Of a DNA stretch of 13,792 bases, positions 4,838 to 13,623 are shown piece by piece (position 1 is the first letter of the stretch; every line of letters starts with the position of its first letter). The DNA lies in assembly GCA_004524445.1 (NCBI GenBank), contig SDNP01000048.1:1-13792 (forward strand), in the 5' to 3' direction. Under the pieces are notes generated by a model. It was not told the origin of the DNA and did not search any database. It worked only from the letters and a program-made list of their open reading frames with translations. Made by a program: the position numbers and the translations under genes. The DNA comes from Candidatus Thorarchaeota archaeon (lineage in GTDB: Archaea; Asgardarchaeota; Thorarchaeia; Thorarchaeales; Thorarchaeaceae).

Positions 4838-5947
4838 CTAGTCCCATGGCTTTATTACAGCCTTCACCGACTCTCTCCGTTCCTGAGTTTCTAATGCCTC
4901 TTGAGCCTCATCTAAGCTGAAGGTATGAGTGACCAGTTCTTCAAACGGAAATCGGTCATAGTGGGATGAGAGAACCCGTATTGCTTCATAGAGGTGCTTG
5001 GTTTCGGATCCCCAAACGGTTCTGACATCCAGATGTTTTCTATTCATAAGATGGGGATTAATTTCGACATCCCCGCCATCAGTGTATTGTCCGCAGATAG
5101 AGTATGCCCCGCCTTCTCGGACGAGGAGGATGCCTTCTCGGATTGCCAGTGGATTGCCGGTGGCCTCGTAAACTATGTCAGGACCATGGTCCTGTGTGAC
5201 GTTTCTAGTGAATTGGATTCTCTCTTCCAGAGATGTTGCTGAGAGGTCCAACGTGTGAGTTGCACCAAACTTCTTTGCCAGTTTCAAGCGATTCTCAGCT
5301 TGGTCTATTGAAACAATTGTAGACGCACCGCTAATGCTTGCAAGGATTGTAATCATAAGACCAACTGGGCCTGCACCTTGAACAACCACGTTCTTGCCGA
5401 ATTTCATTGGGCTACGGTTTACTGTATGAACAGCAGTTGGCATAGCACATCCGAGAGCACTCGCACCATCAAAGCTGACATGATTAGGGAGTTTAACAAT
5501 GTGCGTTCCAGGGGTGAGATACACATACTCAGCATAACCGCCAAGAAGATGCGGCCACTTCTCTGGGTTTCGCGTAATACCATAGACTTCTCGATTCGGG
5601 CATTTAGTAGGGTTTTTTGCGATTAAACAATGCCAGCAAGAATAGCACGTTTTTGTGACGTCATGGAAGACGACTCTGTCGCCCTTCTTGATGGTATCGC
5701 CATCGATATTCGTAACCTCAGTGGGGCCAACTTCTGCGATGGTGCCGACAACCTCATGTCCCAGAATCAGCGGATAAGGTACCCCTGACAACTTCCCATG
5801 CCATAGATGCACGTCGGTTCCACATACTCCAACATTAGCAACCTTCAGCAATGCAGAACCAGAAACAAGTTCAGGGATTTCATATTCACGAATCTCTAAA
5901 TCAGCATTAGGCTCAGGAACAACAGCGGCTCTTGCTTTTTTCGGCAT
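4838..5947 (-). CDS. Zinc-binding medium-chain alcohol dehydrogenase (MDR family), probably NAD-dependent
   Basis: VCGTD, LGHE, structural-Zn CxxCxxC...C (TCYSCWHC...KC), GCA third ligand, GAGPVG Rossmann motif followed by acidic 'ID', and C-terminal THTFSL...KAVIKP. SD GGGTGA upstream of the ATG. Confidence 0.92.
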   Translation of the reverse strand: MPKKARAAVVPEPNADLEIREYEIPELVSGSALLKVANVGVCGTDVHLWHGKLSGVPYPLILGHEVVGTIAEVGPTEVTNIDGDTIKKGDRVVFHDVTKTCYSCWHCLIAKNPTKCPNREVYGITRNPEKWPHLLGGYAEYVYLTPGTHIVKLPNHVSFDGASALGCAMPTAVHTVNRSPMKFGKNVVVQGAGPVGLMITILASISGASTIVSIDQAENRLKLAKKFGATHTLDLSATSLEERIQFTRNVTQDHGPDIVYEATGNPLAIREGILLVREGGAYSICGQYTDGGDVEINPHLMNRKHLDVRTVWGSETKHLYEAIRVLSSHYDRFPFEELVTHTFSLDEAQEALETQERRESVKAVIKPWD

Positions 5948-7083: not shown

Positions 7084-10000
7084 CTAGTCTAGCATGCCCA
7101 AATCTGATTCCTCTTCATTATGGCCTCTCAACCGATCAACTGCCCTTGGAACTCCTCTGACAATTCGTGATGAAACAAATGGAATCAAGATGAGAAACAC
7201 AACTGGAATGAGAACAATTGCTGCCATTGAGTAGTTGCGCAGGAAATCGAGCTGCATAATCGTGGTTGCTCCTAGGATGAGTAAGAACATGAGAAACTTG
7301 ATGCGTATAGAGGACCCCGTTCTACCTATCAATAGAGCTTGCTCCTCTTCTACAACGTCGTGTGGTGTGCCAGCTGCCACCATTTCATCAATCCTGTTTA
7401 GTCCTTTCCGATTGTCCCTATAGAAACTGATCACCACAACTACAATGCTGCTGAGGTAAGTACCTAGAATTGTTGCTAATAGAGGCGGAATACTGATTTC
7501 TCCAATAACAAATTGTGGTACTTCCAAGATGTATCTCTGGAAATGTTCAAGATAAGCACCATAGGTGAAGATAAGAAACACAATGAACGGGACCAAGAGG
7601 AGATGCCAAACGCCCAAGGCCGTGCGCTTCTTGCTAAGACTCCCATCTAGGAGAATCGATTTGTATGCGTCTCGATAGAGCCAAAGCCCGTAGAGTAGAA
7701 CGGATGCACCCAGTAATATGATGCCTTCAATCAAGGAGTACAGAAACTGTCCTTCCATATACAAGAACCACGAATGCACAAACAATAATCCCGTTAATGA
7801 AACCAGAAAAGCATAGACGCGATCAAGTTGCGTGATGCTTCTCTTGATATCATCCTCTCTCCTAGGTTTAGTGGAGATTGCTGAAGATACCTTCACGAAT
7901 ATCATCATGCCAATGAGGCTCAGAAGCAATGAAATACTAGCAGCCATTGAAATTTGACTGGTGCTAAGCGACTCCAAGCTTGGCGTGTAAACCTCAACGA
8001 AGACAGGCACATGATTACTGTGTGGTTCGGAAAGCTCGCCTTCTATGGTAACCGAAATGTTGTACCAACTATGATAGGTGTTTCCAACATCAAATGCGGC
8101 GAAATATACACCTCTTATGTCAGTTTCTTCAGCATTTGTTTGCATCGATGCGAATTCGACCATCACATCCAAACCCGAGATCGGATTCCCGTAGAGGTCT
8201 GTAACTTCAATGTCCACGGTGAGAACTGATTGCTGCACCGGTTCCATTGTGGAGGGCATTATTCTGATTGTTGGATCAGCAACAACTGTCAGGTTCCCAC
8301 TTGTTTGAAATGGATACATGTATTGATGTTCAATAATCAAGTAGTAGGTATGCACTCCAAACGGCCAACCCACAGTTGAAATATCAGTCTGGTAGATACC
8401 TCCGCTGACGGGTTCAAGGTTGTACGTTGTACCTCTGACCAACAGGCTTAGGATGGCATTTTCTGCGGGAATAATGAGCCAGTCTGCAATCTCTACTTCA
8501 ATGTTTGTTGATTGACTCTGGTCTACGTTCCAATCATCTGGCGGCATTCTCAAAATAACGGGGTCAGACATAACGAATAGGTCGCTAACTACAAAACCAT
8601 CATTGCTGAAGTGGGAACCATAGAAGATAATAACGCTCCATTTGCCCATAGAATAGGTTGCATTTAACCGTGCCCGGAACCTACCTCCACCCATATGACT
8701 TGCCGTGACATTCCTTCCATCAATCTCAATGGTTACCCACGAGTCGCTGGGCACAGCTCCATAGTTGTCGCTGACAAACACTGTGACATTGAACATCTCC
8801 CCGCCAGTGACAGGGGGTATCTCTGGCACCTCAACATTTAGGCTCCCCATTGTCACTACATTGAATTCGCCAAAGTTTGTATCCTGGAGGAATTCATGCT
8901 CCACATAGATATCAAAGGAATGATTTCCTATAGCCAGAGATGCAGTGGTATTCAGATGGTAGCATCCTGATTCTAGTTCTTCTAGTACTAGCTCAAGGTC
9001 CCCTCCACGCAGGATTACCTGTGCGTTCTCAAATGGGTTATCAAAGATATCAGTGATATTGAGCCAGCCATTGAACTCCTCATCCTGTTCTACGATATCA
9101 GGCATATCTCTGTTAATCTGAACAGCATCAGTTTCTACCCTGACTATCGCTGTACTAGATGCAGGACTTGAAGCATAGAGATGGTAACCAGTGGCGTTTA
9201 CCACATATTCACCAGGAATGCAGTCTATACTCGGGATAGATAGGCGGTATTGCGCTTCCTCATATACAGCCGGATATTCGGTTCCATCAAGATCCACGGC
9301 CACCATAGCATCTGGAACTCTTACGCCAAGACTATCAACAACCGTAATGTTGGCAGAAAACGTACTATTCTGCATCACGATATCTCGTGTATAGACAATA
9401 ACCTCTAGTGGGCTTCGTACAGTCAGTGCATTAGGATAGTACTCCTCCGCCAGATCATAAAGAGGATGACTAACAGTCACACTGAAATTCACAATGCCCA
9501 TAGGCCAACTGGCTGTTATGGATGTCGAATAGACTCCGGTGTCAAAAATCAATGCTTTTGTTTGGTTGATGATGGAGCCACCAGATGGGTAGTGTATTGT
9601 CACATATACCTCAGCATCGCTGATCACTTCAGAATAGATATTCGTGATGTCAGCAAAGACCATAAGCGAGTCACCCTGCAAAACCTCACGAGTTGAATAT
9701 GCCAGGGATGCATTCAAACGCCGAATCAGCACTATGTCACGAATCACTCCTATCTTCGTGACCCCATTCTGGACTAGCGGGTATGATACAATCTCCTCTC
9801 CATATCCTAGGTCGATATTGCTGAGTGGCATCGAACCATAACCCTGACCAACCGCCATTCTTCGTTCAACAATCCCGTCTAATGACACGATTGTCAGCTG
9901 CTCATCCTGCTTGGTGAAGACCCCATATTCCTCTTCGCCATCACCATCAAAATCAACAACAACCGAGCTGAGATAGTCAGAGGTGCTGACAGGAACGCTC

Positions 10001-12579
10001 CAAGAGATTTCAACTGGGTTTCCAATTATTATCAGCGAAACCTCATCTGAGAAGTAATTTAGGCCTATGATTTCATCAGTCCCGTCACTGTCCACATCTA
10101 TCAGTGTGGGATCCATGTATACGATATCTCGGATAGTGAACAGGGGGGTCTCATTGATTCTTGGTGTGCTACCATCAAAGACATGATAGCCCATTGAATA
10201 TCCAAGTTCATCAATGAGATAGAGATAGAGTAAGAATTTCGTAGATTCTCGGGATCCATTATGATAAGCGTATGGACTAACAGGAATTGTAGCGGAATGG
10301 GTAGCAGATGTCACGTTGTGTGTTGAAATCTTTGTCATGCTGGTTGCATTTATGATGTCTACCGGACCTGTGCTCGCCGATACACAAGCTTCAACCGAGT
10401 TCTGATTGATTGTCTTTGCCAGACTCAATCCATAGTTCTCCGCATCGGATCCAGTCAATGACACATTAGACCATTCCCCACTGGCATCCAGTTGTAGCAA
10501 ATAAGCCGGGGCATAACTCCAATTGAAGTAGTGCTCCGAGATGAAGAAGAATTCCTCAACTCCATCATTATCGCAATCGAATGTCTGTGGTGAATGAGGA
10601 AAAGTGAGATTCAATGGGTGTTGAGAGCTCCACCATAACGAGCCCGAAGAGCCATGATATATTGATACATTGATGGTTCTCGAACTGCTATTATACAGGA
10701 GTACGACAGGATCGAGAACATTGTCACCATCCATCATTCCGGTGTATATCCAGAAATCACTGAATGTGCGATTTGCTACCAAGGCTAATGTTTCATTATT
10801 ACCGCGAGGAGTATACCGGTCAAGATAGATTTCATTCATTATAGAGTCAAGCGTGTAAATCACCTCTCCACCATCTGAGTTGTTGCCTATATCCATTAGA
10901 TGGTGGCTGAGACCGGTATCCTCGTATTTCGATGCAGTCCAAGCCAAGTGTCCGGCCACTGTGAAATTCATGGGATGGCTTGCATTTCCTACGGATGCCA
11001 AATTCAAGTATGTGTCTTGAAACTCTAGGAAGTACTCGTAGTATCCCTCAGCCATTCCGACCAAGAATGCGAAGTATTTGTTTCCCGAATTCTGCATTTC
11101 TTCAATGGGTTGAGTCCAATTGCCCCCTTCGTAACGCAGGTAAATATCTGCGAGAATAATCGATGTATCATCCTCCACGCTCACTTCGATTTCTATGTAG
11201 TCGTCGTGGATTGTGGGATGAGGAGGAGATAGAGGCTCAGGAATTATGATGGGTGGTTGAATGTCACTAAGAAGAACATAGACCGTTTGACTCTGTAGGA
11301 CTATGATATCATCCCGCAAATTGTCATTGACATCGTATGTGAGGATTTGACTTGGTTTAGTGGATATTGTTGGTTCCTCGTAGCCAAATGTGCCATCTAC
11401 TCCTCTGAGGAAACCCACATCACCACCATCAGCAGTCAAAAGTGCATAGTCAGTTAGGTTGTCGGCATCAATAAGACCATAGTCTAACAGGGGACTGGGT
11501 GGGTCTCCTGTGGATATGCCTTTCATAGCTCCTGAGATTTCCACTGTTTGACGGATTACTGTTCCATCTGTCCCGTCTATATAGACGCTGTAATTGGTCT
11601 GGGTAGGCACAATAACCAGGTCCTCCTGACCATCATGATTGAGGAAACCAGTTGTTACAAAACTCCGTTCAGGATGACCTGTAGTGTTGAATAGGGAGGC
11701 CATTGTGTCGGGATTTATGGCTGTCAGATTTCCATCAAACATCATAGCCGCAAGGTCATCGAGTCCACTTCCATACTCGAATTTTGCAATACCGAATATC
11801 TCGGTATGCATCATCTTGGTTCTCAATATGGTCCCGTTTCCACCAATGATGGTCAGGTTGCCATCCTTAGTGGATGTATAGAGACCCATTGCTATCGAAT
11901 CTTGAGAAGACTCAAGGAAATTACCGATTGCATAGCAATCTATCTCGAAACCAGAAAAGGAGAAATTGCCCAGCATTTGATGTGTTTGAACATCTAGTGT
12001 AACTACTCCAAGACGCAGGAATACCGCCACATCCAAGTGTGAATCTGCATTGAAGTGCCCGGTGGAAATTCCCGTTGGTTCGCTGACGGATAGATTGTAG
12101 AGAGTTGTTGTTGCGTCGTTGAAATCAACAATCAGAAGATTGAATGTAGTTCCGTTGTGATTCAATATCAAGAACTCAGTGCTACCGTCGCTATCAATGT
12201 CTGCTCCAGTAATGGTCTTTTCTTCGAGAGTTCCTGATTCAATTGTCTGGTTGAGGGTGATGTCATTAATGGGATCAACGAACCTGAGGACATCTGCAGC
12301 ATCATCAGAGTATGCAAATCCCCGGTAGGTGTTGACGTTACCCATGGCGATATAATCTGAGTGGGCTGTAAGCTGGATAGTCAGATAGTCTTCATCAGCG
12401 ATAGCATTGTTCTTCACTATCTTATCAGTACTGGAAGAGCTCTCATGCCTAGTATTTCCAGACATGATAGGACAAACGAGTACAAAAAGCATAAAGGCCA
12501 ATAGACCCAGCTTTAGAGTATCAAGTTGGTAGTTCTTCAATTGACGTGTCTTAATGCGTGGCGCAGCATCTCTAACCAT
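7084..12579 (-). CDS. Giant cell-surface membrane glycoprotein: signal peptide, two FG-GAP/VCBS-like Ca-binding repeat regions, Ig-like repeats, ~7 C-terminal TM helices
   Basis: 1831-aa uninterrupted ORF with an N-terminal basic plus hydrophobic segment. About 11 DxDxDG-like loops (DIDSDGSTE, HFNADSHLD, FLNHDGQED, LIDADNLTD, DVNDNLRDD, MMDGDNVLD, DCDNDGVEE, DVDSDGTDE, DFDGDGEEE...). Six ~95-aa beta-rich repeats of the V.D..G.p+..a.V...G.Y type. Many NxS/T sequons. Seven hydrophobic segments in the last ~290 aa. Confidence 0.85.
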   Translation of the reverse strand: MVRDAAPRIKTRQLKNYQLDTLKLGLLAFMLFVLVCPIMSGNTRHESSSSTDKIVKNNAIADEDYLTIQLTAHSDYIAMGNVNTYRGFAYSDDAADVLRFVDPINDITLNQTIESGTLEEKTITGADIDSDGSTEFLILNHNGTTFNLLIVDFNDATTTLYNLSVSEPTGISTGHFNADSHLDVAVFLRLGVVTLDVQTHQMLGNFSFSGFEIDCYAIGNFLESSQDSIAMGLYTSTKDGNLTIIGGNGTILRTKMMHTEIFGIAKFEYGSGLDDLAAMMFDGNLTAINPDTMASLFNTTGHPERSFVTTGFLNHDGQEDLVIVPTQTNYSVYIDGTDGTVIRQTVEISGAMKGISTGDPPSPLLDYGLIDADNLTDYALLTADGGDVGFLRGVDGTFGYEEPTISTKPSQILTYDVNDNLRDDIIVLQSQTVYVLLSDIQPPIIIPEPLSPPHPTIHDDYIEIEVSVEDDTSIILADIYLRYEGGNWTQPIEEMQNSGNKYFAFLVGMAEGYYEYFLEFQDTYLNLASVGNASHPMNFTVAGHLAWTASKYEDTGLSHHLMDIGNNSDGGEVIYTLDSIMNEIYLDRYTPRGNNETLALVANRTFSDFWIYTGMMDGDNVLDPVVLLYNSSSRTINVSIYHGSSGSLWWSSQHPLNLTFPHSPQTFDCDNDGVEEFFFISEHYFNWSYAPAYLLQLDASGEWSNVSLTGSDAENYGLSLAKTINQNSVEACVSASTGPVDIINATSMTKISTHNVTSATHSATIPVSPYAYHNGSRESTKFLLYLYLIDELGYSMGYHVFDGSTPRINETPLFTIRDIVYMDPTLIDVDSDGTDEIIGLNYFSDEVSLIIIGNPVEISWSVPVSTSDYLSSVVVDFDGDGEEEYGVFTKQDEQLTIVSLDGIVERRMAVGQGYGSMPLSNIDLGYGEEIVSYPLVQNGVTKIGVIRDIVLIRRLNASLAYSTREVLQGDSLMVFADITNIYSEVISDAEVYVTIHYPSGGSIINQTKALIFDTGVYSTSITASWPMGIVNFSVTVSHPLYDLAEEYYPNALTVRSPLEVIVYTRDIVMQNSTFSANITVVDSLGVRVPDAMVAVDLDGTEYPAVYEEAQYRLSIPSIDCIPGEYVVNATGYHLYASSPASSTAIVRVETDAVQINRDMPDIVEQDEEFNGWLNITDIFDNPFENAQVILRGGDLELVLEELESGCYHLNTTASLAIGNHSFDIYVEHEFLQDTNFGEFNVVTMGSLNVEVPEIPPVTGGEMFNVTVFVSDNYGAVPSDSWVTIEIDGRNVTASHMGGGRFRARLNATYSMGKWSVIIFYGSHFSNDGFVVSDLFVMSDPVILRMPPDDWNVDQSQSTNIEVEIADWLIIPAENAILSLLVRGTTYNLEPVSGGIYQTDISTVGWPFGVHTYYLIIEHQYMYPFQTSGNLTVVADPTIRIMPSTMEPVQQSVLTVDIEVTDLYGNPISGLDVMVEFASMQTNAEETDIRGVYFAAFDVGNTYHSWYNISVTIEGELSEPHSNHVPVFVEVYTPSLESLSTSQISMAASISLLLSLIGMMIFVKVSSAISTKPRREDDIKRSITQLDRVYAFLVSLTGLLFVHSWFLYMEGQFLYSLIEGIILLGASVLLYGLWLYRDAYKSILLDGSLSKKRTALGVWHLLLVPFIVFLIFTYGAYLEHFQRYILEVPQFVIGEISIPPLLATILGTYLSSIVVVVISFYRDNRKGLNRIDEMVAAGTPHDVVEEEQALLIGRTGSSIRIKFLMFLLILGATTIMQLDFLRNYSMAAIVLIPVVFLILIPFVSSRIVRGVPRAVDRLRGHNEEESDLGMLD
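7990..9715 (-). repeat. About six degenerate Ig-like protein repeats (coding-level repeat) in the giant protein
   Basis: Recurring cores ADITNIYSEVISDAEV, NITVVDSLGVRVPDAMV, NITDIFDNPFENAQV, VFVSDNYGAVPSDSWV, VEIADWLIIPAENAIL and IEVTDLYGNPISGLDV, each followed ~20 aa later by a G-x-Y/F strand. Boundaries are approximate. Confidence 0.65.
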
Positions 12580-12583
12580 TGCA

Positions 12584-12660
12584 TCTCCATCCCAAGCGAA
12601 TATGGGATGTAGAAGAAACTAGTGCATTTCTATGTTTCCGCTGCGAATGCTCTTTATAAG
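12584..12660 (-). promoter_or_regulatory. Putative TATA box (12659-12653) and 5'-UTR hairpin covering the RBS of the giant gene
   Basis: Minus strand CTTATAAAG about 75 nt upstream of the ATG. TCT-A-CATCCCA-tattcgct-TGGGATG-G-AGA ends 4 nt before the ATG and contains the GGATGGAG SD-like sequence. Confidence 0.45.
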
Positions 12661-12717: not shown

Positions 12718-13623
12718 CTACTGGTTGTCGATCTCACCCGTATCGAGTATCTTTGGTTCCGAAACCGAGAGTTCTTTGTCCTGAAATCTGCTCAGAAGAA
12801 TAACTCCAATTATTCCGCACACCAGCCCAAGAGCATAGAGTAGAGTATTGTTCAGTGATTGTCCAAATATGTAGAGTCCACCAAATATCACAGCGAACAT
12901 ACTAATGGTTCCAGTGATCGCATTGAAGCGCGCAGCAGGATTTCTTTGCAGTCCAATAGAGATTGTATAGACCCCGGCCGCAAATGTGAAGATGCCCAGC
13001 AAGATGAGAGGAATCAGGGCATTGATGAATCCTTCAATAATGTCGGTTCCTGCGAATAATGAAAGGGTGAACCACTGGGTGTATTGTGATGCCAATGCCT
13101 GCAGGAATGAAGTGATCGGTGCCCAGAGTATAGACAGACGGCGGGTTGCAGGCACCATAGTGCTAACTGCAATTAGCAAAATCACTGTGTAAAATAGAAT
13201 GCCATCATAAGATGCGAACATTATCGGTTCTGTGACTCCTCCAAAAGCAATGAACACGGGCGTCAAAATCAGCATGATAACGCCAATTATTGCCTTAGCG
13301 TCAATCTCCTCATCCAAACGGCGGTGCGAGAGAATGACCAGTGCGATGAGTCCAACGTTCATGAGCGGCTGGACCACAACGATCCCTGCCATTTGAGTGG
13401 CCAGCAGATATGTCAGCCCTCCAAGCAATGAGATTGCAAACCCAGCAAGCCATCTCTTGTTCTTGAATAATGCGCCGGTCTGCTTCAAGGCACCGGAAAC
13501 CTCTATATTCTCCATGGTGGATAGAGCCTCTTTCTGGATGATGGGGGCGATGTTCCACATTAGGGAGGTCATGATAGCCAGAAGAATCCCTAGAAACGCA
13601 CCGGTCATGAGAAGTTGCATCAT
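12718..13623 (-). CDS. DMT/EamA-superfamily membrane transporter (NIPA Mg2+-transporter-like N-terminus)
   Basis: 301 aa with about 9-10 hydrophobic helices. Motifs 'IIQKEAL', 'LFKNKRWLAG', 'VVVQPLMNVGL..L..L...LDE' and terminal 'GLVCGIIGVILLS' are typical of DMT/NIPA-like proteins. Confidence 0.75.
   Translation of the reverse strand: MMQLLMTGAFLGILLAIMTSLMWNIAPIIQKEALSTMENIEVSGALKQTGALFKNKRWLAGFAISLLGGLTYLLATQMAGIVVVQPLMNVGLIALVILSHRRLDEEIDAKAIIGVIMLILTPVFIAFGGVTEPIMFASYDGILFYTVILLIAVSTMVPATRRLSILWAPITSFLQALASQYTQWFTLSLFAGTDIIEGFINALIPLILLGIFTFAAGVYTISIGLQRNPAARFNAITGTISMFAVIFGGLYIFGQSLNNTLLYALGLVCGIIGVILLSRFQDKELSVSEPKILDTGEIDNQ

Follow-up and report, generated by a model that had tools for sequence, protein, structure and literature searches.

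A giant Thorarchaeota surface protein with two FG-GAP-type propellers, an Ig-like stalk and a C-terminal membrane module of no described family

The stretch of DNA considered here (the window) comprises 13,792 nucleotides of Candidatus Thorarchaeota archaeon, corresponding to positions 1 to 13,792 of contig SDNP01000048.1 in assembly GCA_004524445.1. It holds one long minus-strand open reading frame (ORF) at 7084–12579, which encodes a protein of 1831 amino acids, is free of internal stops and ends with a stop codon at 7084–7086; ORF analysis of the window confirmed that the reading frame is intact. An original prediction from the letters alone had described this protein as a giant adhesion receptor, with integrin-type Ca-binding propellers, an immunoglobulin (Ig)-like stalk and a seven-helix anchor, and of particular interest should the host be an Asgard archaeon. 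That is the case: the source genome belongs to the Thorarchaeota (Asgard), is 90% complete and carries a single copy of the gene family, and the best matches of the protein are also from Thorarchaeota. The protein belongs to a known kind, giant archaeal adhesins or receptors, and its membrane module represents an undescribed family. New here are an eight-blade reading of the propellers, figures for the glycosylation-site and charge bias of the ectodomain, the phylum-wide distribution of the family and an interpretation of the membrane module as one plus six helices. All segments of the protein described below are encoded on the minus strand.

The N-terminal residues 1–44 (12448–12579) consist of a K/R-rich segment and a hydrophobic h-region, placed by hydropathy at residues 21–40 (a stretch of 18–20 residues with five K/R ahead of it). 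As judged from these features, the N-terminus is either a Sec signal peptide or an uncleaved signal anchor. The signal peptide originally proposed is thus consistent with what was seen, as is the anchor. Two repeat regions with DxDxDG-like loops follow, which had been placed at about 12390–11275 and 10955–9730. The first corresponds to a beta-propeller at 11266–12393 (residues 63–438; FG-GAP-like, with a complete DxDxDG loop at residue 127 and further degenerate loops) and the second to a beta-propeller at 9736–10944 (residues 546–948; FG-GAP_3, with complete loops at residues 668, 828 and 876), so that the earlier coordinates were correct to within a few residues. Both regions fold as beta-propellers, with 32 predicted strands each, in an AlphaFold2 model of residues 41–950 that was built from a 20-sequence alignment and has a predicted local distance difference test score (pLDDT) of 83.5. 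A representative-wide structural scan with VIA separated the two propellers at model residues 23–398 and 504–908, and the top Foldseek rows for the ectodomain model were all tandem-propeller proteins.

Using VIA, the eight-bladed proteins Rsa4, ODA16, Sqt1 and Cdc4 were found to match the window propellers at Z 25–26.6, and a designed eight-blade protein was also among the best matches; for propeller 1, eight-bladed folds scored Z 25–26.6. BamB (8adg_B) was aligned to propeller 2 at Z 26.2 (315 aligned of 361 residues, 3.0 Å) and Bap1 of V. cholerae (6mlt) gave Z 23.8 with 339 aligned residues, whereas integrin alpha-5 reached only Z 17.3, against 24–26.6 for the eight-bladed folds (BamB, Bap1 and WD40-type). 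Because the 32 strands fit eight blades of four and the best fold matches are eight-bladed, the modelled propellers are probably eight-bladed rather than of the seven-bladed integrin type. Profile matches point the same way. Pfam FG-GAP_3 (PF13517) was matched at E 3.1e-11 (44.1 bits versus a cut-off of 26.9 bits) over three stretches, the best being residues 828–883, and this match recurs among the homologues; integrin FG-GAP (PF01839) scored 13.7 bits, under its cut-off of 22.1 bits. The Asp and Gly positions of the DxDxDG loops, including D127 and D129, are invariant across 26 full-length relatives. A PDB sequence-profile search with the ectodomain gave only marginal matches to a secreted esterase (E 0.0012), a PL11 lyase (E 0.16) and integrin alpha-V (E 0.4). 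As modelled, the heads are therefore FG-GAP/VCBS-type propellers with predicted Ca loops and not the seven-blade kind of integrins, and the integrin label originally given to them is not supported: besides the better fit of eight-bladed folds, neither Integrin_alpha2 nor, at the C-terminus of the window protein, a GFFKR motif was found.

Between the propellers lies a segment at 10945–11247 (residues 445–545), which is all-beta in the AlphaFold2 model. It had been reported as an Ig-like spacer at about 11270–10957; a beta-sandwich is indeed present there, but hidden Markov model (HMM) scans showed it to be unrelated to the six repeats of the stalk. It is the best conserved part of the ectodomain, at 71% identity to clade 1 and 43% to clade 2 (see below). 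The stalk itself occupies 7990–9717 (residues 955–1530), in agreement with the six Ig-like repeats seen earlier at about 9715–7990, and is composed of six units of ∼95 residues that start at about 955, 1055, 1160, 1241, 1344 and 1440. The units are mutually related, with reciprocal self-HMM matches among all six. Matches to Big_1 (22.5 bits, cut-off 34.9) and Invasin_D3 (23.2 bits, cut-off 33) were confined to repeat 6 (residues 1449–1517), which is weakly like Big_1/Invasin_D3; homologues carry precomputed Big_1 matches. A search of the full protein against NCBIfam gave no match.

The ectodomain contains 39 N-X-S/T sequons. Composition-matched shuffles contained 14.2 ± 3.4, and none of 1000 reached 39. 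The density is 2.6 sequons per 100 residues, compared with 0–0.5 for the cytoplasmic proteins encoded in the window, and the charge of the ectodomain is strongly biased (206 D+E versus 54 K+R). From these features of composition, the protein is exported and probably heavily N-glycosylated.

Only ∼12 residues separate repeat 6, the end of which is near residue 1530, from the first transmembrane helix (TM1), which starts at 1543. Seven hydrophobic segments lie within residues 1543–1805, all of them helical in the AlphaFold2 model, and the seven hydrophobic helices of the original prediction are borne out by both hydropathy and the model. Topology was assigned from hydropathy, the positive-inside rule and the AlphaFold2 model. 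Since 21 K+R fall in predicted inner loops versus 2 in outer loops, and since the ectodomain is rich in sequons, the helices are modelled as running N-out/C-in. TM1 (7891–7953, residues 1543–1563) is a connector helix that passes from outside to inside and is the least conserved of the seven. TM2–TM7 (7165–7818, residues 1588–1805) form a six-helix core with conserved motifs on the cytoplasmic side, and a cytoplasmic tail of 26 residues (7087–7164, residues 1806–1831), first basic and then acidic, completes the protein. The module model has a pLDDT of 81 and a predicted template-modelling score of 0.73; pLDDT is 84–97 across TM2–TM6 and lower for TM1 (∼70) and TM7. Long helices extend 11–20 residues into the cytoplasm in this model, and the outer loop between TM4 and TM5 contains a small hairpin.

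Loss of conservation in the membrane region would have pointed to a plain anchor. The helix region is instead strongly conserved among homologues, with 69% identity to clade 1 and 44% to clade 2 versus 54–63% and 28–32% for the propellers and Ig-like stalk, a level equalled only by the inter-propeller sandwich. Because of this strong conservation within the family, the membrane part, as read from its sequences, is not a plain anchor. None of the outcomes that the original prediction had named as refuting it (far fewer helices or no compact bundle, repeats that do not model as propellers, an unconserved membrane region) came about. In an alignment of 53 module sequences, 37 columns are invariant and are clustered at the cytoplasm-side ends of helices. 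The invariant motifs are WLYRD at the end of TM3, R..G.WH at the start of TM4, YR[DE] at the end of TM5, AGTP...E...SSIRIKF in the 41-residue TM5–TM6 loop leading into TM6, and P..F...P..SS in TM7. Conservation is highest in TM3–TM7 and the inner loops (15 of the 41 columns of the third inner loop are conserved at ≥90%) and much lower in TM1 (4 of 21 columns at ≥90%), the first inner loop, the outer loops and the tail. Invariant polar side chains within the membrane core are limited to H1659, S1626, S1711 and T1703, and in distant members of the module, conservation is left only at positions with R, K, S, F or P. An internal duplication was considered as the origin of the two Y-R-[DE] motifs after TM3 and TM5 and was rejected, since hhalign comparisons of the TM2–3, TM4–5 and TM6–7 hairpins gave probabilities of ≤0.2%.

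The module could be assigned to no known family in Pfam or NCBIfam, among PDB sequences or among solved folds. Searches against Pfam and NCBIfam returned scattered and inconsistent sub-threshold matches only (Pex2_Pex12, DUF2178, HlyIII), and a PDB sequence-profile search returned nothing at E≤10. The best Foldseek match in the PDB had an E of 0.085, and no GPCR (G-protein-coupled receptor) was listed. In a wide structural search with VIA, where Z values under ∼13 should be considered unspecific for helical bundles, the module peaked at Z 10.3 against a designed bundle. The nearest neighbors in a language-model search were bacterial sensor modules (MASE10, and unnamed modules with HAMP or a cyclase) at 0.90–0.92, with low recognition; for MASE10 the language-model similarity was 0.83–0.90. 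MASE10 (PF20970) was rejected as an assignment when none of the 53 members matched its profile at E≤10. PAQR/HlyIII was also rejected: 5 of the 53 members matched (best E 7e-4), the window protein did not, and the module has a single invariant His. No PAQR chain was among the top VIA fold rows listed, which by itself says little. Finally, a search of the Asgard literature on integrin, FG-GAP, seven-transmembrane and surface proteins found no description of the family; a passage of PMC9258230 cites Liu et al. 2021 for ‘integrin repeat-containing’ Asgard proteins.

These searches bear on three other explanations of the protein. It could be genuinely homologous to the adhesion GPCRs or integrins of eukaryotes, as the N-out/C-in topology, the Y-R-D at the end of TM3 and the FG-GAP repeats on an Ig-like stalk might suggest. 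However, no 7tm Pfam family was matched by the window protein at E≤1 or by any of the 53 module members at E≤10, and the GPS/GAIN Pfam domain was not found in either at E up to 10. The sole GPCR row in the VIA search had a Z of 7.6 and a root-mean-square deviation of 16.1 Å, the propellers lie nearer to eight-bladed folds (Z 26) than to integrin (17.3), integrin alpha-V appeared merely at E 0.4, Integrin_alpha2 gave no signal, and the core of the bundle is apparently of six helices. Integrin beta (PF00362) had no match in the window genome (90% complete), a result that should be considered uninformative because the control genomes gave none either. Homology to GPCRs or integrins is thus largely refuted, and we give it next to no chance. 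The adhesion-GPCR-like character first attributed to the seven helices is not supported either; the original prediction had itself called the similarity architectural.

The bundle might alternatively be a tethered channel or transporter, that is, a pore or carrier, perhaps oligomeric, that would be gated by force or by a ligand of the ectodomain (a mechanosensor). The prolines that are conserved in TM4 and TM7, along with the small residues of TM3 and TM5, hint at helices that can move, and the weak top fold rows of the module are bestrophin, the transmembrane domains of pentameric ligand-gated ion channels and OSCA/TMEM16. These rows are at noise level, however (Foldseek E ≥0.085, TM-score 0.1–0.2, VIA Z ≤10.3), and the membrane core contains no invariant charged residue; we consider a channel improbable. 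A membrane enzyme or biogenesis helper, which would act on a lipid-linked substrate of the inner leaflet (perhaps to process glycans or lipids needed by its own ectodomain), might account for the invariant cluster of Arg, Lys, Tyr, His and Ser at the cytoplasmic membrane boundary and for the 39 sequons. This explanation is very improbable: the module gave no profile or fold match to GT-C, flippase, rhomboid, CPBP, exosortase or PAQR proteins, and distant members keep only R, K, S, F and P, with no recognizable catalytic set.

Relatives of the window protein were collected at several scales. The closest are proteins of 1820–1910 residues from Thorarchaeota metagenome-assembled genomes (MAGs), with 55–62% identity (clade 1); a second full-length clade (clade 2) has ∼32% identity, and a third class is ∼2500 residues long. 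Among 185,579 species genomes, scanning with a pattern picked out 66 loci, all in Thorarchaeota/‘Promethearchaeota’ MAGs except for one Hermodarchaeota and one Njordarchaeum, with one to four paralogues per genome, often two or three. When 400 genomes of the phylum were searched with the module profile, 87 matched. These included 56 of the 85 genomes in the family of the window genome; the distribution was patchy elsewhere, and several large families had no match. The gene is accordingly widespread yet dispensable, the latter because one genome of the same genus, though 94% complete, is without the module. From 1.84 billion representative proteins, 135 relatives were recovered with a profile. 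The module is always C-terminal in the long ones (1200–2500 residues), and the distant ones are named Lokiarchaeota. In one Loki relative of 1651 residues, a BNR-type (BNR_2) propeller replaces FG-GAP and a double zinc ribbon follows the module. Both the ectodomain and the tail that accompany the module vary, the ectodomain being of the FG-GAP kind in Thor and of the BNR_2 kind in Loki.

The family is restricted to Asgard archaea. P0060 (RKY70245.1; 1451 residues), on a 4.4-kb contig, is labelled Candidatus Latescibacterota; since all other named members are from Asgard archaea, this bacterial label is most likely a binning error. In two Thor genomes (L066:8758–9595 and G312:C57:8743–9370) the module is split into short ORFs, with an open frame of 88–170 residues around the motifs, and these broken modules are probably pseudogenes or assembly errors. 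The ∼2500-residue class (L024, L034, L038, L046, L051, L052 and L060) has an acidic cytoplasmic tail of ∼100 residues that ends in a conserved helical motif (LTKxELIxLLPExVK..G.EELKKLSKxQLExLL), and no Pfam family matched these tails.

Some relatives carry the module in a shorter form and are not pieces of the stalk. P0118 and P0179 (347 and 348 residues; Promethearchaeota/Helarchaeota records), P0149, P0152 and P0160, which range from 318 to 391 residues overall, begin with Met and a K-rich N-terminus and contain five or six helices that align to TM2–TM7. Of the module motifs they retain WxYRD, the SS in TM5, the K.F in TM6 and the P in TM7; they end in a C-terminal double zinc ribbon (DZR) and are apparently without an ectodomain. 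At one locus the two parts are encoded separately (L069:1704–5568, minus strand; genome G175, contig C162, 91% complete, from another family). The first gene there encodes 941 residues with a signal sequence and an ectodomain, the last 150 residues holding a single TM and a K/R-rich tail. The second gene, 10 nt downstream and in another frame, encodes a 342-residue protein of six TMs plus a double zinc ribbon. The 941-residue protein aligns over at least 500 residues, to its very end, with the region of the fused relatives ahead of the module. Both halves have their homologous counterpart in those relatives, and P0160, from an independent assembly, begins at the same Met as the six-TM gene.

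Given the zinc-ribbon six-TM proteins, the split locus, and the fact that TM1 is both less conserved and less confidently modelled, the helices are read as one plus six. Judged from the sequences, the conserved unit is probably a six-helix N-in/C-in module, with TM1 as the anchor of a type-I surface protein, and the simplest reading is that the seven-helix GPCR-like topology arose by fusion of an adhesin plus TM1 with this module. The idea of a unitary seven-helix bundle is accordingly one that the relatives do not favor.

A purely structural role must also be weighed at this point. The protein might be an envelope component in which the module serves as a strong, laterally oligomerizing anchor for a glycosylated canopy or adhesin, in a host without a classical S-layer, and passes no information across the membrane. 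Such a role would agree with an ectodomain that shows typical features of archaeal surface glycoproteins, with one to four paralogues per genome, with conserved Gly, Ser and Pro residues suited to tight contacts between helices or protomers, and with signalling domains or partners not having been found. Against it, conservation peaks at polar and charged residues on the cytoplasmic side and in the 41-residue inner loop, not at lipid-facing or outer positions; there are proteins in which the module is joined to a cytoplasmic double zinc ribbon, apparently with no ectodomain on the same polypeptide; and many complete Thor genomes are without the module, which therefore cannot be the general envelope. 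We regard a structural anchor as possible, though doubtful.

The surroundings of the gene were examined both in the window and at homologous loci. A TATA-like sequence (CTTATAAAGA; 12651–12660, minus strand) lies ∼75 nt upstream of the ATG of the giant gene, and GGAGAT (12583–12590, minus strand) lies directly ahead of it. Because of these two elements, the sequence suggests that the giant gene is transcribed alone from its own promoter. Upstream on the same strand is a gene for an EamA/NIPA-like transporter (12718–13623). Among the other window genes is an iron-sulfur/sulfur-relay cluster at 471–2721 on the plus strand, made up of TusA (471–746), a class-V aminotransferase or cysteine-desulfurase-like (IscS-like) gene (743–1945, with a 4-nt overlap with TusA) and NifU_N (1942–2721), the C-terminal part of which is weakly similar to pyridine-nucleotide-disulfide oxidoreductases. 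A CLC channel with CBS domains, a zinc alcohol dehydrogenase and a weakly matching helix-turn-helix (HTH) protein are also encoded.

The clade-2 paralogue sits in a conserved block, to which a response-regulator receiver and a zinc-ribbon membrane protein belong. A conserved convergent gene adjoins the paralogue, and the response-regulator receiver gene lies beyond it (L029:15581–17110, minus strand, with equivalents in 28 loci; L055:2929–3393, minus strand). The product of the convergent gene is a membrane protein of ∼510–550 residues, in which a signal peptide and a glycosylated ectodomain are followed by a TM and a cytoplasmic CxxC...CxxC zinc ribbon, and these by two more TMs and an acidic tail. 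Note that the clade-2 block is syntenic over the whole 15 kb and for this reason says little about functional linkage.

The reading that we prefer, tentatively and at somewhat less than an even chance, is that the protein is no passive anchor but a Ca-dependent adhesion receptor or coupler with a cytoplasmic partner, formed by fusion of an adhesin with a six-helix protein. A type-I single-pass adhesin would have been joined to a six-helix N-in/C-in module, gaining a GPCR-like N-out/C-in topology by fusion and not by descent from GPCRs. The propellers would bind an extracellular ligand (a glycan, or a protein of a partner cell or matrix) in a Ca-dependent manner, and TM1 would pack against the six-helix core. 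The invariant inner face (WLYRD, R..WH, YRE and AGTP..E..SSIRIKF), together with lineage-specific tails (a zinc ribbon, an acidic helix or, as in the window protein, almost none), would then hold or regulate the cytoplasmic partner. A further proposal, which we consider unlikely, is that the module is an Asgard-specific outside-in coupler, which would dock single-pass or fused adhesins via TM1 and relay to zinc-ribbon or helical tails and a partner, possibly cytoskeletal.

Several observations weigh against an adhesion receptor or coupler built in this way. No known signalling domain was found in the window protein using Pfam and NCBIfam, and its 26-residue cytoplasmic tail is short and unconserved. 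High conservation of the membrane domain is also expected of an oligomeric anchor or a channel. Gene neighborhoods are no more encouraging: none of the window neighbors (TusA, IscS-like, NifU, CLC, alcohol dehydrogenase, HTH and EamA) recurs at the 66 homologous loci, the clade-1 orthologues (55–62% identity) share no common neighbor, and no conserved cytoplasmic partner, operon or signalling neighbor was found around the clade of the window protein, so that the signalling genes which the original prediction would have looked for nearby did not appear there. The 94%-complete genome of the same genus that is without the module belongs here as well. As for the fusion, the split form is clearly present in only 1 of 400 genomes, and the split at L069 may have come about by natural fission or else reflect a frameshift in the assembly, the latter because the two open frames overlap by ∼85 nt. 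P0155, which was considered as a further stand-alone module, was rejected because a scaffold gap (N run, L068 ∼4895–4952) precedes it and the frame is open upstream into an ectodomain.

Eukaryotes have no closer known relatives than the Asgard archaea, which live in close physical association with partners. To our knowledge, almost nothing is known of how their surfaces bind partners or pass information inward. The family described here is large, is widespread in Thorarchaeota and extends to Loki-, Hel-, Hermod- and Njord-type genomes, and in it an ectodomain that is clearly adhesive is combined with a membrane module of no described family. If adhesion is coupled to the cytoplasm, these proteins would represent a new type of receptor in prokaryotes and would offer a handle on cell–cell contact in the lineage that founded the eukaryotes; if the module is an outside-in coupler, an adhesion-receptor system would have arisen independently in those prokaryotes that are most closely related to eukaryotes. 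Should the module be an anchor only, it would still define a new membrane-protein family and likely a major surface antigen. Because homology to GPCRs or integrins was not seen, none of these outcomes bears on the origins of either.

Compared with known systems, the window protein resembles each in part. Bacterial membrane sensor modules (MASE10 and those that precede HAMP or cyclase domains) are likewise multi-helix and joined to cytoplasmic output parts, and they should be considered a weak lead; the window module, unlike them, is C-terminal and without a classical output domain. The eight-bladed propellers of Bap1/RbmC and BamB are the best fold matches for both window propellers, and Bap1 serves as an adhesin of the biofilm matrix and has Ca sites like those of FG-GAP/VCBS proteins. 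The relation is at the level of fold only (9–14% identity), and those proteins are soluble or lipid-anchored, with neither an Ig-like stalk nor a polytopic module. Integrin alpha shares FG-GAP-type repeats with DxDxDG loops, a propeller head on an Ig-like stalk and, as the predicted role of the window protein, Ca-dependent adhesion. The window protein differs from it in having two propellers, each probably eight-bladed, in matching FG-GAP_3 with PF01839 remaining below its cut-off, in lacking Integrin_alpha2 legs, and in possessing a polytopic membrane domain in place of a single pass.

Adhesion GPCRs (class B2; for example latrophilins and GPR56) also combine a large, adhesive, glycosylated ectodomain with seven helices in an N-out/C-in arrangement, and in them, as in the window protein, the longest inner loop is that between TM5 and TM6. 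No sequence relation and no significant fold match of the window module to theirs was found, and the window protein is without GAIN/GPS, for which the ∼12 residues between the end of Ig repeat 6 and TM1 would leave no room. We know of no G-protein-type partner for the window family. A further difference lies in the construction of the bundle, which in the window protein seemingly consists of a connector helix and a six-helix unit that occurs apart from the ectodomain.

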